Shown here piece after piece: positions 57,656 through 64,000 of a stretch of 64,000 bases of DNA (within the stretch, counting starts at the first letter, position 1; each line of letters starts with the position of its first letter). Origin of the DNA: Bacilli bacterium. Lineage in GTDB: Bacteria; Bacillota_I; Bacilli_A; RFN20; CAG-826. A program made the position numbers and the translations under genes. The stretch covers positions 131,239-195,238 of the forward strand of contig JBJEDT010000025.1 in NCBI GenBank assembly GCA_051872335.1, read 5' to 3'. The notes beneath the pieces are model-generated. The model had not been told where the DNA came from and did not search any database. It saw nothing but the letters and a program-made list of their open reading frames with translations.

Positions 57656-60346
57656 TTATTCTTTACTCTTTAAAGAGTTTGATATTGGTCTTGATATTAT
57701 TGCAAATAAAGGAATAAAGCAACAAATTAAACTAATTACAGTATTTATTGAAAATACTAATAGTCCACTAGTAGCAGAGTAAGTATAAATACTAAAGATT
57801 GAATTTAAAGTTTTTAATTGCCAATTATTTATCATACTTACGATAGTAACCCCTAATAGGATTGATAACACCGAAACAATAATAGAAGCTAAAAAGAAAA
57901 TAAAACATATATTAAAGCAGATATTCTTTTTCTTTTCACCTAGGGCTCTTAAAATCATTAATTCATTATTATGCTCTCCGAATATACTAATATTTAAATA
58001 AAGAACAAACGCAACAACTATTATTAAAGAAATTATTGATACAATAGAAAATACGTTCATTACAACTCCAAATGTTGATTGTGTATTTTCATAACAATAA
58101 AAACTAGCATTTTTCAATAAATAAGAAGCTTCATATTCGTCCACAACTACAATATAATCTTGTTTAATAGTTACAGCATCATTATCTGTAGAATATGACT
58201 CTATACTTCTAATATTATTAATAATTGTTTCTTCATCTCCAATAGCTGAAATTATTATTGATTTTATATCATTAAAGTATCCTAGAGTATTTAAACGAAT
58301 TTCGGATAGTAAATCATTACTACAAAACACATTATACACTGAGTAATAATCATAATCATAAATGACCCCACCAATTTTTGCATTATATGTAACTATGTTA
58401 CTATCAATAACAGTGGTAAAAGTTAATACTTTATCTTTAACATCTAAATATTTTTCATTGAATATTTTGTATACTCCATATTCAAATATTCCTTCGTAAT
58501 CTATAGGTTTATATTTTTTATCTCTATATCCATGATTTATTAAATAATTTACATAATCTTCTTTATTATCTTTTGTTGGATAATCCGCAATAAAGTTTTC
58601 CTTAATTTCCTCAAAATATAGATCTGCATATAACGAAGCGCCTTCATTTAAAATTGTATTATTGTTTTCTTTTATAAAACGATTCATTGGTAATACAACT
58701 TCATTATCATTGCACGTGGATGAATCATTTAACCAAATAATCTTATTACTTGAAAGATCTGTTGAAATAAATGAATCATAGGCATGAAAATACGAACCAT
58801 CGAAATATGCAGAAACATTTAATGTAATCTCATCATAATTTTGAGTATCAGAACGACCATATAATTGATTTATTCTAAATGTTTCACTAACATATAAAAC
58901 ATTACTAAAGGAACCCTCTAATTGGTTCTCTAGCTCATTTCTCAAACTATTTGTATAAGTAGATTTGCTTTTAAGGGGATTATATCTATTAAAATTAAAA
59001 TCCGTATCTACTACTCCAGTTACAATATAATTCATGTTATTCATGGAAAGTGTTGTACCTAAAATATCTTCTTTCGAATTTATTTCATAAACTATAGTTC
59101 TATCACTTGTATCCAAAATATTTGCCTCTTTTATATATTCGAATTGATAATCTGTTATCATAACTTCATTGTATAGAGAAGGTAAATTCCCAACATAAGT
59201 TAAGTCATTTTCTAATAACATCGACTCATTTACTTCTGTATAACCATAAAAACTTTTTACATACAAATCATGATTTACAACATTAGCTAGATTGTCGATA
59301 GATAATTCTTTTTTAAATTCATAAATTGGATAAGCCTTACCATCTATTAGATGACAAAACTCACTAAATTCTTTATCACTAAAATTAACATATGCACTAC
59401 TTTTTGAATTATTGTAATCATATAATACTTCTTTTCTAATTCCATAGGTAGATAAATTTGTTTTATCCATTCCTGACATAATTAAAGAATATTTATTAAT
59501 ATCACTACAAGCTATACTAGTACCTAATATAGAAACTGAAACTAAAGAAAGAAACAATGCGAATATTCCTCTTAAAGGTTTTTTAAAATAATATGAACCC
59601 ATCATTTTAAAATATCTTTTAAAGCTTATCTTTCCATCTTTTTTTATTTTATTTTGGTCATTTTGCTTTCTTATAGAATTTAATTCTAAATCATCTATTA
59701 TAGAACCATCTTTCATAGTTAAAAGTCTATCAGCAAATTGCTTTGCTGAATCAACATCATGAGTAACACATATAACTAAAATCTCTTTGCTTATTTCCTT
59801 AATTAATTTAAGAACAGATAATCCTGTTTCTTTATCTAAAGCTCCTGTTGGTTCATCACAAAGTAAAAGCTTTGGCTTTTTTATAAGAGCTCTTGCTATT
59901 GCTACTCTTTGCTTTTCTCCTCCAGATAGAGTACTTATCTTTTTATTTTCAAAACCAGAAAGACCAACTTTAGTTAGCATTTCACTAACTAAAGTTTGAT
60001 CTTTATGTCTATTTAGTAATTCTAATGAAATTAAAATATTTTCTGATACCGTCAAACTTTCAATAAGTTGAAAATCTTGAAAAACATACCCTATAAAATT
60101 ATTCCTATATGATGTTAATTTGCTTTCATTAAGTTTAGAAATATTAACATTACCAAAATAATAATCACCTCTGTAATTATTTTCTAACAATCCTAAAATA
60201 TTTAATAATGTAGTCTTTCCACAGCCTGATGGTCCTACCAAAAAATTAAAACCAACATCAGCAAAATCTAATGATAAATTATCTACAGCTTTAATACTAT
60301 CATATTTTGTTTCATAGATTTTCGTTATGTTTTTCAATGCAATCAT
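57656..60346 (-). CDS. MacB-type fused ABC transporter (N-terminal ATPase, large extracytoplasmic domain, FtsX-like 4-TM permease)
   Basis: Walker A GPSGCGKTT, signature LSGGEKQRVAIARAL, Walker B LLLCDEPTGALD. TM1 follows, then an extracellular domain of roughly 500 aa, then three C-terminal TM helices carrying an FtsX-like ALG motif. Confidence 0.8.
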   Translation of the reverse strand: MIALKNITKIYETKYDSIKAVDNLSLDFADVGFNFLVGPSGCGKTTLLNILGLLENNYRGDYYFGNVNISKLNESKLTSYRNNFIGYVFQDFQLIESLTVSENILISLELLNRHKDQTLVSEMLTKVGLSGFENKKISTLSGGEKQRVAIARALIKKPKLLLCDEPTGALDKETGLSVLKLIKEISKEILVICVTHDVDSAKQFADRLLTMKDGSIIDDLELNSIRKQNDQNKIKKDGKISFKRYFKMMGSYYFKKPLRGIFALFLSLVSVSILGTSIACSDINKYSLIMSGMDKTNLSTYGIRKEVLYDYNNSKSSAYVNFSDKEFSEFCHLIDGKAYPIYEFKKELSIDNLANVVNHDLYVKSFYGYTEVNESMLLENDLTYVGNLPSLYNEVMITDYQFEYIKEANILDTSDRTIVYEINSKEDILGTTLSMNNMNYIVTGVVDTDFNFNRYNPLKSKSTYTNSLRNELENQLEGSFSNVLYVSETFRINQLYGRSDTQNYDEITLNVSAYFDGSYFHAYDSFISTDLSSNKIIWLNDSSTCNDNEVVLPMNRFIKENNNTILNEGASLYADLYFEEIKENFIADYPTKDNKEDYVNYLINHGYRDKKYKPIDYEGIFEYGVYKIFNEKYLDVKDKVLTFTTVIDSNIVTYNAKIGGVIYDYDYYSVYNVFCSNDLLSEIRLNTLGYFNDIKSIIISAIGDEETIINNIRSIESYSTDNDAVTIKQDYIVVVDEYEASYLLKNASFYCYENTQSTFGVVMNVFSIVSIISLIIVVAFVLYLNISIFGEHNNELMILRALGEKKKNICFNICFIFFLASIIVSVLSILLGVTIVSMINNWQLKTLNSIFSIYTYSATSGLLVFSINTVISLICCFIPLFAIISRPISNSLKSKE

Positions 60347-60365
60347 AATATTTTTATCTCCTGAC

Positions 60366-61967: not shown

Positions 61968-61976
61968 AGTTTTCTC

Positions 61977-64000
61977 CTATTTAATTAAATCGATTGTTTT
62001 TTTTCTATATGTTTTAATAATAGAAAAAAAGGAAATGACGCTAGAAAAAAAGAATGTTAATATAAAACCTATTACTCCTTGAATATATGAATAATTTATA
62101 TAATTAAAATTACAACAATATTTTTCTTGTATTATATTGTTAAGTAAATTACTAATGACAATACATGATATATTAGATAATATAGATGTTGTTAATGTAA
62201 ATATTATTGAATAAACAACAAAAGAGCCTATTATACTTTTACTATTAATTCCCAAAGATTTAAATATTCCTATTTCTTTTTCTTTAGTTAATATTATTCC
62301 TTTTACATCAAAAAAAATAAAGAATATTGAGAAAACAAACAATGCACTACCAATTACTAGCAATGAAGATTTATAAAAAGTTATTCCATCATCGATATTA
62401 TCATATATAAAAGTTGATAAATTATCTACTTTATAATATGCTTTATTCACTCTGTAATTAGTATCTAATATATATTCAGGTTGATTTGCAATTATTAAAT
62501 CATTTAGTTCAAACAAATCTTTATTAGCCATTTTATTGTCGGAAAGAGGTATGTAACACATTGAAATATCATTTCTATAATACGATAATTTATCTACTAA
62601 TTTATTATAATTTTTTGTCGAAAGATACACTGCCTTTTTACTTTCACCAAAAGAAATTCCTTGTAGTTCTAAATTGACTAATGTATTACTATTATTCGCA
62701 TTTATTCTTATTGAGTAAGCGTTAGTTTCAAATAGTGCATGATCCTCAATAAATTTACTAATGCACCATTTTGTAACATCATTTTTGCTGATATCAAGAT
62801 ATTTTGAATCTTGATAATCATTAATAATCAAATAAGAAGAATAAGTTTGATATGTACTTTCTTCTCCAAAATCATTTTTGAAAGCTGTTTCAATAGTATT
62901 AAAGACACTTTCCGCATAATACGTTATATATAAATTTAAACAATGAGTCTCAGTAGTTTCAAACGATTCCAATGGCAAGACAATTCCTAAATTATCTAAA
63001 GATCCATTTTTATAAATAACATTCTCAGAATTTGGAGAAGCATATGATAATACATTAAAATTATTTAAATAATTAATAACACTATTATTTACCGTAATTC
63101 CATTGTTTTCTAAGTAATGGCTATCATTATATGTTTTGATGTTTCTGTTATAATAACCTTCTTTTAAGAAAATAGTCTGTTCTAGACTTGTGTTAAAATA
63201 CTTTTTCATTTGGTTATTAAGTTCATCACTAATACCAGTTGTTTCTGTATCTTTTTCCTTAAACAAATCATCATTAAATTTTGTGTCTAAAATACCAACG
63301 ATTTTAAAAATATCATACTCATCAAAATCTTCATAGGCAGACAATTGAATTTCTTTACCTATTATATCATTATACTCATTAATATCGTATCGTTCATAAA
63401 ATGGGGTTCTATAACCATCTTTTTTGAAGACTTGATATATATAATCTGTTATTACTACTTCGTTATCATTACTTGGTAAATTACCAAAAAGTTCGAAATC
63501 AAAATCTGTTATTATTTGATTATTTATCTCACAAAATCCATTAATAACATTTGAATAAAGTGATGAGTTATTTTGATTAATATTAACTATTTTCTGCTCA
63601 AAGTATGAATATTTAGGTAAAACATTTAATAAAGAATATTTTTGAAGTTTATCTATATCATTTTCATCAAATTCAATGTTCTGAGAAAAAATATGGCCAT
63701 CTATATCATAATCCAATGCCTTATGATACGATAAATAGTTAATATCATTATCTTCCATATGTTTCAAAACTGAATTTGTTTTATTGAATAGTACTAGTGA
63801 ACTAGATAGTCCAAATGCACTTAATGAAATTGTCATTAATAGTATTGCTATTAAAACACGAGTTTTTTTGCACAAGAAATAAGAGAAACCTATTTTCCAT
63901 ACTTTAATATTCCTCTTAAAATTTGATGTATCAAAGTTAATATTATATGAAATTTCATCCTGAAAATTCTTTTCACATGTAACAAGTTTTCCTTCTTCAA
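61977..64000 (-). CDS. Second MacB-type ABC transporter paralog (5' end outside the window)
   Basis: The reading frame stays open upstream of the annotated TTG to the window edge. The pre-TM1 segment KRNIKVWKIGFSYFLCKKTRVLIAILLMTISLS parallels KRYFKMMGSYYFKKPLRGIFALFLSLVSVS of the 896-aa paralog. There is a large extracellular domain and a C-terminal FtsX-like permease. Confidence 0.65.
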   Translation of the reverse strand, partial: EEGKLVTCEKNFQDEISYNINFDTSNFKRNIKVWKIGFSYFLCKKTRVLIAILLMTISLSAFGLSSSLVLFNKTNSVLKHMEDNDINYLSYHKALDYDIDGHIFSQNIEFDENDIDKLQKYSLLNVLPKYSYFEQKIVNINQNNSSLYSNVINGFCEINNQIITDFDFELFGNLPSNDNEVVITDYIYQVFKKDGYRTPFYERYDINEYNDIIGKEIQLSAYEDFDEYDIFKIVGILDTKFNDDLFKEKDTETTGISDELNNQMKKYFNTSLEQTIFLKEGYYNRNIKTYNDSHYLENNGITVNNSVINYLNNFNVLSYASPNSENVIYKNGSLDNLGIVLPLESFETTETHCLNLYITYYAESVFNTIETAFKNDFGEESTYQTYSSYLIINDYQDSKYLDISKNDVTKWCISKFIEDHALFETNAYSIRINANNSNTLVNLELQGISFGESKKAVYLSTKNYNKLVDKLSYYRNDISMCYIPLSDNKMANKDLFELNDLIIANQPEYILDTNYRVNKAYYKVDNLSTFIYDNIDDGITFYKSSLLVIGSALFVFSIFFIFFDVKGIILTKEKEIGIFKSLGINSKSIIGSFVVYSIIFTLTTSILSNISCIVISNLLNNIIQEKYCCNFNYINYSYIQGVIGFILTFFFSSVISFFSIIKTYRKKTIDLIK

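Follow-up and report, generated by a model that had tools for sequence, protein, structure and literature searches.

To our knowledge, MACPF proteins are used as antibacterial weapons only in Bacteroidales, where the producers are protected by a receptor variant; that is to say, they carry a variant of the target surface molecule and not an ATP-binding cassette (ABC) pump. These proteins, BSAP-1 to BSAP-4, are secreted for bacterial competition in the gut (PMC4999547). In the lactococcin-972 operons (lcn972-orf2-orf3 and the pneumococcal scbABC), a Sec-secreted antibacterial protein containing a β-sandwich is directly followed by a large membrane permease and an ABC ATPase that are thought to confer immunity (PMC4055356, PMC11796350), and the ABC genes raise the minimum inhibitory concentration of the producer (PMC4055356). 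Among the MacB-like, or type-VII, ABC proteins (MacAB-TolC, LolCDE, FtsEX, BceAB, and YbbAP), BceAB provides an earlier example of protection from antimicrobials that target the envelope (PMC5985334, PMC9169098), and type-VII ABC proteins commonly regulate an extracytoplasmic partner bound to their extracytoplasmic domain (ECD), as in FtsEX-EnvC (PMC7668044) and YbbAP-TesA (PMC12646458; reviewed in PMC5985334). Here we describe an operon on the minus strand of a 64,000-nucleotide stretch of Bacilli bacterium DNA (lineage RFN20, CAG-826; contig JBJEDT010000025.1, positions 131,239 to 195,238; hereafter the window), in which the gene of a 533-residue secreted MACPF protein lies between the genes of two fused ABC-FtsX proteins, ABC1 and ABC2. 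The full operon comprises four genes in the order rSAM, ABC1, MACPF, and ABC2, and the first of these, encoding a radical S-adenosylmethionine (rSAM)/SPASM enzyme, lies beyond the window edge, on matching DNA of the Logan contig L001. The parts of the operon inside the window are as follows:

57600–57645 (12-bp A/U-rich stem at 57612–57645), minus strand: terminator-like hairpin and U-tract at the operon end
57656–60346, minus strand: ABC2, 896 residues, a fused type-VII (MacB-topology) ABC protein, assigned by Pfam, NCBIfam, and hydrophobic segments
60347–60365, minus strand: intergenic gap of 19 nt with an AGGAG ribosome-binding site ahead of ABC2
60366–61967, minus strand: secreted MACPF protein, 533 residues, with a TNF-like jelly-roll C-terminal domain (C-domain)
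61968–61976, minus strand: intergenic gap of 9 nt with a GGAG ribosome-binding site ahead of the MACPF gene
61977–64000, minus strand: ABC1, the C-terminal 673 of 883 residues, of the same architecture as ABC2, with the frame open to the window edge

We tentatively read this cassette, at a little short of an even chance, as a Sec-secreted pore-forming protein toxin combined with type-VII ABC self-protection and, optionally, rSAM maturation of the toxin C-terminus; gene context and analogy with the systems above point to the pairing of toxin and immunity. According to this reading, (i) Sec would export the 533-residue protein; (ii) its jelly-roll C-domain would bind a surface molecule of the target cell, probably a glycan or a lipid-linked envelope component; (iii) the MACPF domain would oligomerise and insert two refolded β-hairpins to form a pore; (iv) the ABC-FtsX protein would use cytoplasmic ATP hydrolysis to recognise the toxin on the producer membrane, probably via the C-domain, and dislodge it, thereby conferring self-immunity, with ABC1 and ABC2 probably acting as a heterodimer like LolC and LolE; and (v) in the sub-lineage of the window, the cytoplasmic rSAM/SPASM enzyme would modify an appended C-terminal Cys before export, the likeliest product being a thioether cross-link or a related C-terminal modification.

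The operon logic is that of the lactococcin-972 operons, and both window ATPase domains find their best NCBIfam match in the ATPase family of these operons, TIGR03608 (192.3 and 188.3 bits, below the cutoff of 254.85). By contrast, the lactococcin-972 toxin is a 66-residue lipid-II binder and the protein described here is a 533-residue MACPF protein with a TNF-like domain; the ATPase here is fused to a permease with 4 transmembrane (TM) segments and a 480-residue ECD; and an rSAM maturase is present. No match to Lactococcin_972 or TIGR01654 was found in the operon proteins, and the operon is not a member of the lactococcin-972 family. The BSAPs share secretion, the MACPF domain, and the gut habitat, but their producers are Gram-negative Bacteroidales; they have no rSAM enzyme and no TNF-like C-domain, and they are absent from the sequence matches of the MACPF family. 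By analogy, the window protein would work like a two-domain MACPF pore-former and the operon like a bacteriocin with ABC immunity. Full-text literature searches turned up no paper linking MACPF proteins with FtsX/ABC partners, or with rSAM enzymes in this sense, which agrees with the original prediction, made from the window sequence alone, in which the pairing of a MACPF-like protein with dual MacB pumps was not recognised as a described system.

The linkage between the MACPF gene and the ABC gene is conserved. Gene contexts were compared at ten distinct loci (the window, L011, L012, L013, L016/L021, L019, L020, L027, L029, and L031) within a neighbourhood sample of about a dozen loci. The original prediction was to be abandoned if homologues were never found next to MacB/FtsX transporters; in all ten loci, the next gene downstream on the same strand encodes a fused ABC-FtsX protein after a gap of 9–94 nt, and the MACPF proteins there are 20–31% identical. 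The downstream ABC proteins are as follows:

Window (L001): 896 residues
L011: 879 residues
L012: interrupted by an assembly gap
L013–L015: 897 residues
L016–L018 and L021: 910 residues
L019: two downstream ABC proteins, 840 and 903 residues
L020: cut at the contig end
L027/L028: cut at the contig end
L029: 901 residues
L031: cut at the contig end

The permease parts of these proteins (ECD and TM segments, with the nucleotide-binding domain (NBD) excluded) are mutually homologous across loci, with tblastn E-values down to 1e-69, and match no described ECD family. Therefore, the ABC protein belongs to a dedicated partner family and is not a generic neighbour. Two permease genes are present in five loci of the wider set: the window and L011 have one ABC gene on each side of the MACPF gene, L019 has two downstream, L006 has two fused ABC genes, and L008 has the arrangement FtsX-ATPase-FtsX. 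The coupling of two transporters to the MACPF protein, as proposed in the original prediction, thus holds in the window and recurs elsewhere, but the conserved core is a single ABC gene, and the second copy is a recurrent, optional duplication. This recurrence suggests heterodimers of the LolC/LolE kind.

The same ABC type also adjoins small secreted proteins (about 200 residues) that consist of the C-domain only, namely at L030 (6-nt gap), at L006 (divergent from the two fused ABC genes), and at L008 (with FtsX-ATPase-FtsX). Since the ABC linkage holds for these C-domain-only proteins, it is probably the C-domain rather than the pore-forming domain that the ABC partner recognises. These loci (L006 5273–10351, L008 9755–13724, and L030 2785–3552) may represent a MACPF-less version of the system in Anaeroplasmataceae-like genomes. 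By contrast, five of the six large surface proteins that carry the C-domain have no neighbouring ABC gene of this family; at the sixth, L002, a fused ABC gene lies 1.8 kb away and matches the window ABC proteins only in the NBD. The ABC family therefore goes with the small or the MACPF-bearing secreted C-domain proteins. A scan of metagenomes gave six loci, of which one is of the family type (L021), one is a short fragment (L023), and four are copies of a distant 763-residue MACPF gene without an ABC gene. At these four loci (L022, L024, L025, and L026, from human gut metagenomes, at about 5542–11083), conserved proteins of 352 and 754 residues, which do not match the ABC family, come after the 763-residue MACPF protein (E-value about 1e-15 to the family); these loci constitute a different MACPF gene neighbourhood.

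The components of the cassette diverge at different rates. Mean identity is 26% for the MACPF core and 20% for the ECD, compared with 40% for the NBD and 39–50% for the rSAM enzyme. Because toxin and ECD diverge faster than NBD and rSAM enzyme, the cassette has the pattern that would be expected of a weapon and its immunity. The position of the cassette differs among genomes, and in places it lies beside an integrase or an insertion sequence (IS) element.

In the window, the gene order, the 9-nt and 19-nt gaps, and the terminator (hairpin 57612–57645 followed by a U-tract) are as the original prediction described them. The hairpin has a folding energy of −13.2 kcal/mol (z −2.74; 3 of 200 shuffled sequences fold equally well) and was missed by a consensus terminator scan, as its stem has fewer than 3 G-C pairs. 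Extension of the contig, which the original prediction had called for, completed ABC1 and added the rSAM gene. On the source contig, ABC1 extends to window-equivalent position 64628 and the rSAM/SPASM gene occupies window-equivalent positions 64634–65956; on L001, whose DNA is identical, ABC1 is 883 residues long with ABC_tran and FtsX domains, and the rSAM/SPASM gene, encoding 440 residues, lies 5 nt upstream of it. A 632-residue open reading frame with a TTG start, considered as ABC1, was rejected as an artefact of the window edge, the true start being outside the window. The rSAM gene is preceded by an intergenic region of 165 nt that contains a terminator-like hairpin after dut and a ribosome-binding site. 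The rSAM maturase and the significance of the C-terminal cysteine (described below) were beyond the reach of a reading confined to the window.

The MACPF protein has the following features, all on the minus strand:

61908–61967, minus strand: Sec-type signal peptide, about residues 1–20, MKMKICGLVILTGSLLYFA, without a lipobox, read by eye from the sequence
60873–61820, minus strand: MACPF domain, about residues 50–365, with YGTH and IPLWEMLP motifs
61509–61637, minus strand: candidate membrane-inserting region TMH1, residues 111–153, between two strands of the central sheet
61119–61250, minus strand: candidate membrane-inserting region TMH2, residues 240–283, two modelled helices between central strands
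60387–60800, minus strand: TNF-like jelly-roll C-terminal domain, residues 390–527, with DHGYQEF and YGAHGxxEDDWKN motifs
60369–60371, minus strand: codon of Cys533, the appended last residue, which co-varies with the rSAM gene

The protein matches Pfam MACPF over residues 150–307 with 29 bits (gathering score 21.5; E-value 1.5e-06), and its homologues are likewise annotated as PF01823. The predicted structure contains the bent central β-sheet with two helical clusters (TMH1 and TMH2) that characterises the MACPF/CDC fold. By sequence and by predicted fold, the protein is a member of the MACPF superfamily, as had been proposed. At the MACPF signature (Y/W-G-T/S-H-F/Y-x6-G-G), the window protein has YGTHLVKTASYGA, which keeps YGTH and has L in fifth place and A instead of the final G; the family consensus at this site is YGTHxIxxAxYGG. 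Residues G217, T218, H219, G227, P339, D411, and W514 are invariant in the family. TMH1 is predicted to be helical or disordered and has a β-amphipathic periodicity, with peaks of the hydrophobic moment at residues 111–127 and 133–149; TMH2 contains many Ser, Thr, and Ala residues and shows an alternating pattern, and its hydrophobic moment peaks at residues 247–280. The homologues have classical signal-peptidase-I sites, judged by eye, such as VSA/S, VLA/A, and AKA/A.

The nearest structural matches are GNIP1Aa, Mpf2Ba1, Plu-MACPF, and perforin, which are insecticidal or eukaryote-active MACPF proteins. Like the window protein, Plu-MACPF, GNIP1Aa, and Mpf2Ba1 are bacterial two-domain MACPF proteins, but the sequence identity is 10–11%, their producers are Gram-negative insect pathogens, their C-terminal folds are different, and neither an ABC gene nor an rSAM gene is linked to them. 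The C-domain of the window protein has no match among Pfam or NCBIfam families; structural comparison revealed that it resembles lectins, TNF-like domains, and carbohydrate-binding modules.

An exhaustive HMMER search revealed 260 relatives; among the best 150 of these, about 65 are full-length, with 440–600 residues, a signal peptide, and 20–31% identity to the window protein. Word-indexed searching found only the window protein itself when queried with it and three proteins when queried with a 28-sequence alignment, the family being too divergent for word indexing. Besides its place in the MACPF proteins, the C-domain stands alone in the secreted proteins of about 200 residues and forms the end of large surface proteins with BspA-type leucine-rich repeats (LRRs), Listeria-Bacteroides repeats, or α/β-hydrolase domains; an alignment-driven scan of the genome contigs gave only C-domain proteins of other architectures. 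No relatives of the MACPF protein, the rSAM enzyme, or the ABC2 permease were found in viral, plasmid, and phage collections. The hosts, uncultured bacteria associated with the gut, come from samples of human, roe deer, sheep, and Hadza origin.

ABC2 consists of the following parts:

60346–59672, minus strand: NBD, residues 1–225
59575–59519, minus strand: TM1, residues 258–276
59518–58055, minus strand: ECD, residues 277–764
58054–57659, minus strand: FtsX-type TM2–TM4, residues 765–896

Pfam identified ABC_tran (E-value 9.9e-31) and FtsX (9.1e-07) in ABC2, and likewise both domains in ABC1. Both proteins have an NBD, TM1 at residues 258–276, an ECD of about 480 residues, and then three TM segments (residues 765–783, 813–831, and 862–880). 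By topology and FtsX domain, they belong to the FtsX/type-VII ABC class, with which they share the N-terminal NBD fused to a 4-TM FtsX permease, the large extracytoplasmic domain between TM1 and TM2, and presumably mechanotransmission. Of the original "MacB-type" assignment, the topology (ECD of about 480 residues, TM1 plus three TM segments) and the FtsX domain stand; the ECD, however, is more than twice the size of that of MacB, no match of the permease parts to MacB_PCD was found even at E-values up to 10, nor to any other Pfam or NCBIfam family, and no gene for a MacA/HlyD-type adaptor is present in the four-gene operon or any related locus. We take the G-x-LP-xx-NEVVIT and KIVGILDT motifs of the permease to resemble the Porter region. 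The AlphaFold2 model of the ABC permease, based on a 2-sequence alignment, has a mean predicted local distance difference test (pLDDT) score of 37.9, which is too low for the model to be used.

Compared with MacAB-TolC, there is no TolC in this monoderm host, and the partner is a folded 50-kDa protein. BceAB has a 10-TM permease, with the ECD between TM7 and TM8, and a separate ATPase, whereas the proteins described here have 4 TM segments and a fused ATPase; nor was a histidine kinase or response regulator of a BceRS-type two-component system, which would mark a BceAB module, found near the operon. ABC1 and ABC2 are 30.9% identical over 658 residues (E-value 1.5e-75), so that the paralogy, originally noticed in the linkers preceding TM1, reaches far past them. 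The orthologue of ABC1 in L011 is 33% identical over 882 residues.

The 440-residue enzyme encoded upstream of ABC1 has the CxxxCxxC motif of rSAM enzymes, as CNLRCTYC, and a complete SPASM motif (defined as Cx9-15Gx4C ... Cx2Cx5Cx3C ... C), as RCDAGITRFAINNDGKIYPC, CNKCFYYYLCGGEC, and then NMC. These features, together with Pfam matches to Radical_SAM (4.1e-16) and Fer4_12, place it among the rSAM/SPASM enzymes, and it shares CxxxCxxC and the full SPASM motif with the PapB, CteB, QhpD, and anSME maturases. The best family match is the PapB thioether maturase (NF047865; E-value 7e-46), at 157 bits and thus far under the equivalog cutoff of 340; the best match in the PDB is CteB (6.5e-22), and the best solved relatives are CteB and anSME. 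Alignments start at residue 35 of the query with residue 83 of CteB, and at residue 53 with residue 11 of anSME, which suggests that the N-terminus (about 34–55 residues before the core) is too short for a canonical leader-recognition (RRE) domain; most of the N-terminal leader-recognition region of CteB has no counterpart in the enzyme. No coding-strand open reading frame of at least 20 residues for a precursor peptide was found in the 165-nt upstream region or between the genes. With neither a short precursor gene nor an apparent RRE in the maturase, the operon does not appear to be a conventional cluster for ribosomally synthesised peptides with post-translational modifications (RiPPs). In PapB-type systems the precursor is a short Cys/Asp-rich peptide with a leader, whereas the apparent substrate here is the last residue of the 533-residue protein and, in L032, that of a 366-residue protein.

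When aligned, the window protein and its three closest relatives all end in an invariant Cys, whereas most of the other family members stop one residue short of it (…TFKK, …QYAK). Of the columns of a 65-sequence alignment, only that of the C-terminal Cys, occupied in 6/6 Cys-ending members and in 1/59 others, cleanly separates the two groups. The six Cys-ending members sit in three places of a neighbour-joining tree, which is poorly resolved and leaves the number of independent origins of Cys and rSAM uncertain. Of the five loci with a Cys-ending MACPF protein, four have the rSAM gene (window, L011, L027, and L031). The gene is absent where the protein does not end in Cys, both in L013, L016/L021, and L020, which have several kilobases of flank, and in L019 and L029, which have little upstream sequence. 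Two proteins, P0020 (…YYSSC) and P0065 (…EYSLC), were picked solely by their C-terminal Cys, with the rSAM gene predicted ahead of any look at their gene context, and both have an orthologous rSAM gene (43% identity) directly upstream of the MACPF gene.

The Cys-acidic sites CVMTD, CIDD, and CEDD were considered as PapB-like targets; two of these Cys are not conserved in the closest homologues, and C323 is invariant only in a four-member subclade. They were rejected as a general target because only the C-terminal Cys is common to all rSAM-linked members. The rSAM family comprises at least 146 clusters at 36–51% identity. At L032 (6312–9320) and L033 (352–3360), a 39%-identical rSAM gene follows genes for a Cys-ending (…DYVFGLC) 366-residue PF27189 (YkzU) protein, unrelated to the MACPF protein, and a 177-residue membrane protein, and there is no MACPF gene. 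The family seems not to be confined to one fold among the C-terminal-Cys proteins that it serves, and the most economical explanation would be that it modifies the C-terminal Cys of full-length proteins. PapB joins the Cys thiol to a carbon adjacent to a carboxylate, the C-terminal carboxylate of a peptide included (PMC12373016). There are precedents of other kinds as well: anSME is a SPASM enzyme whose substrate is a Sec-exported protein of full length, and, beside thioether formation, a C-terminal reaction like that of MftC is a precedent. The link between the rSAM enzyme and the C-terminal Cys is the most original element of the system.

Several observations weigh against the interpretation as toxin with self-protection. 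It is context that suggests toxicity, pore formation, and immunity. The window protein departs from the MACPF signature (YGTHLx6GA, not ...GG), and the overall model has a pLDDT of 68.7, which is moderate, with the TMH regions being the least confident. A mirror-tree test over 15 pairs gave r 0.46 for MACPF against ECD and r 0.43 for the control of MACPF against NBD, that is to say, no specific signal of MACPF/ECD co-evolution. The MACPF protein of L012 ends in Cys, yet no rSAM gene lies within 9 kb, and an IS1595-family transposase gene is upstream of the MACPF gene. The rSAM enzyme is not specific to the MACPF toxin, since its family exceeds the Cys-ending MACPF set and the member in L032 lies beside a different Cys-ending protein. 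A eukaryotic target would require no immunity, and the strict ABC linkage would then imply a different role. Finally, a partnership of docking or activation would explain the link between ABC protein and C-domain just as well.

Such a partnership, in which the secreted protein docks via its C-domain on the ECD and mechanotransmission holds it inactive, activates it, or releases it, for instance in contact-dependent delivery, would make the ABC protein an FtsEX-like factor needed for activity. We consider this unlikely overall, though FtsEX-EnvC and YbbAP-TesA are type-VII precedents for it, the ECD is very large and family-specific, the ABC linkage tracks the C-domain down to the C-domain-only proteins, and the C-domain ends LRR and Listeria-Bacteroides-repeat surface proteins at the place where anchoring modules usually sit. 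Known FtsX partners, however, bind through coiled coils, none of which is predicted in the MACPF protein, and the C-domain does not generally need the ABC protein, as five of six large C-domain proteins lack it and the match at L002 is in the NBD only. This, with the rapid divergence of toxin and ECD and the accessory, variable, and mobile location of the cassette, favours self-immunity, although not decisively. It is rather improbable that the protein is a cytolysin aimed at the host or at eukaryotes, or a surface factor with which a gut commensal binds glycans without lysis, and that the ABC protein performs envelope housekeeping tied to its production: a eukaryote-specific toxin gives no reason for an obligatory, co-diverging, dedicated ABC gene in 10/10 loci, and the BSAPs of Bacteroidales are proven antibacterial MACPF toxins of the same habitat (PMC4999547). 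The closest structural matches, which are insecticidal or eukaryote-active, the resemblance of the C-domain to lectins, TNF-like domains, and carbohydrate-binding modules, and the gut-associated hosts do fit that explanation, as does the fact that several bacterial MACPF proteins are without demonstrated lytic activity.

The original prediction also considered an export role for the transporters, which is weakened by the Sec-type signal peptide of the MACPF protein. Because this protein and its homologues have their own signal peptides, the ABC proteins are not needed for export. Export or processing might still apply to a particular form, in that ABC1 might handle an rSAM-modified, cross-linked protein that Sec cannot translocate; ABC1 forms its own orthologous group and adjoins the rSAM gene in the window and L011, and the ATPase domains resemble "bacteriocin export" ABC families. 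Nevertheless, this role is very improbable, since all family members have Sec signal peptides and there is no known case in which the 4-TM MacB/FtsX architecture, which acts by mechanotransmission from the membrane's outer face, carries substrates through the cytoplasmic membrane (PMC5985334). Moreover, neither a C39 peptidase domain in the ABC proteins nor a double-glycine leader was found, L027 and L031 have the rSAM gene without ABC1, and the rSAM-less loci still have the ABC gene.

The chromosomal surroundings of the operon include genes for Mfd, FtsH, LysS, and HydABC-type hydrogenase subunits in the window and NrdDG just upstream, from which we conclude that the window is part of the chromosome of an anaerobic low-GC Firmicute. 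Directly past the operon terminator (55571–57422, minus strand) lie genes for a 183-residue lipoprotein (lipobox LLTSC, no family) and a 413-residue protein with eight Sel1 repeats. The lipoprotein (56871–57422) was considered as an immunity candidate and rejected, both because its gene is past the terminator and because it shows no homology to the lipoprotein at the corresponding position in L011. Farther away, an AbiEii-family nucleotidyltransferase toxin (288 residues, Pfam 8.3e-30) is encoded at 51772–53227 (minus strand), preceded at 1 nt by the gene of a 195-residue protein without a Pfam match, which would presumably be its AbiEi-like antitoxin in a toxin-antitoxin pair of type IV. Divergent from the toxin gene, at 53328–55532 (plus strand), is the gene of a 734-residue glutamine-dependent NAD synthetase (CN_hydrolase and NAD_synthase), whose N-terminus resembles the Phd/YefM antitoxin in frame (residues 16–70; 22.9 bits, below the gathering score); this stretch could be a real fusion or the result of a mis-set TTG start.

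Two further genes, at 44196–45272 and 14136–15452 (both minus strand), encode an adenine methyltransferase of the D12 class, fused to HTH_3, and an ATPase of the AAA_14/DUF4143 family. The AAA_14/DUF4143 family also occurs beside the rSAM gene in L032/L033 and in L029, which hints at mobile or defence-island-like surroundings. An open reading frame of 618 residues at 45334–47190 (minus strand) has no Pfam match at E-values up to 1e-5. A TMEM164-family membrane protein is encoded at 10495–11925 (minus strand), 46 kb from the cassette. In L019, a further member is encoded (7402–8217) just downstream of the MACPF-ABC-ABC genes; this is probably a coincidence.

The cassette could represent a new class of Gram-positive protein bacteriocin, a possibility that we regard as doubtful in its full form: a Sec-secreted MACPF pore-former with TNF-like lectin targeting, a dedicated type-VII ABC protein with a giant ECD that neutralises it in the producer by recognising the lectin domain, and, in some lineages, rSAM maturation at the C-terminal Cys of the full-length protein by an enzyme family that also serves other C-terminal-Cys proteins (the YkzU type of L032). 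If true, it would be a bacteriocin with RiPP-type chemistry on a 60-kDa toxin. A Firmicute counterpart of the Bacteroidales weapons with a dedicated ABC partner would reveal a second, mechanistically different way of living with one's own pore-former, and a folded 50-kDa protein would be a client of a kind new to the type-VII ABC mechanotransmitters. The unannotated TNF-like C-domain, which is found on MACPF proteins, small secreted proteins, and large LRR surface proteins, may be a new module for targeting or anchoring in the uncultured Bacilli and Clostridia of the gut. The co-variation of rSAM gene and C-terminal Cys points to a definite substrate that can be tested for a large orphan SPASM family, one without a visible precursor peptide; if confirmed, it would mean that RiPP-like radical chemistry also acts on full-length secreted proteins.

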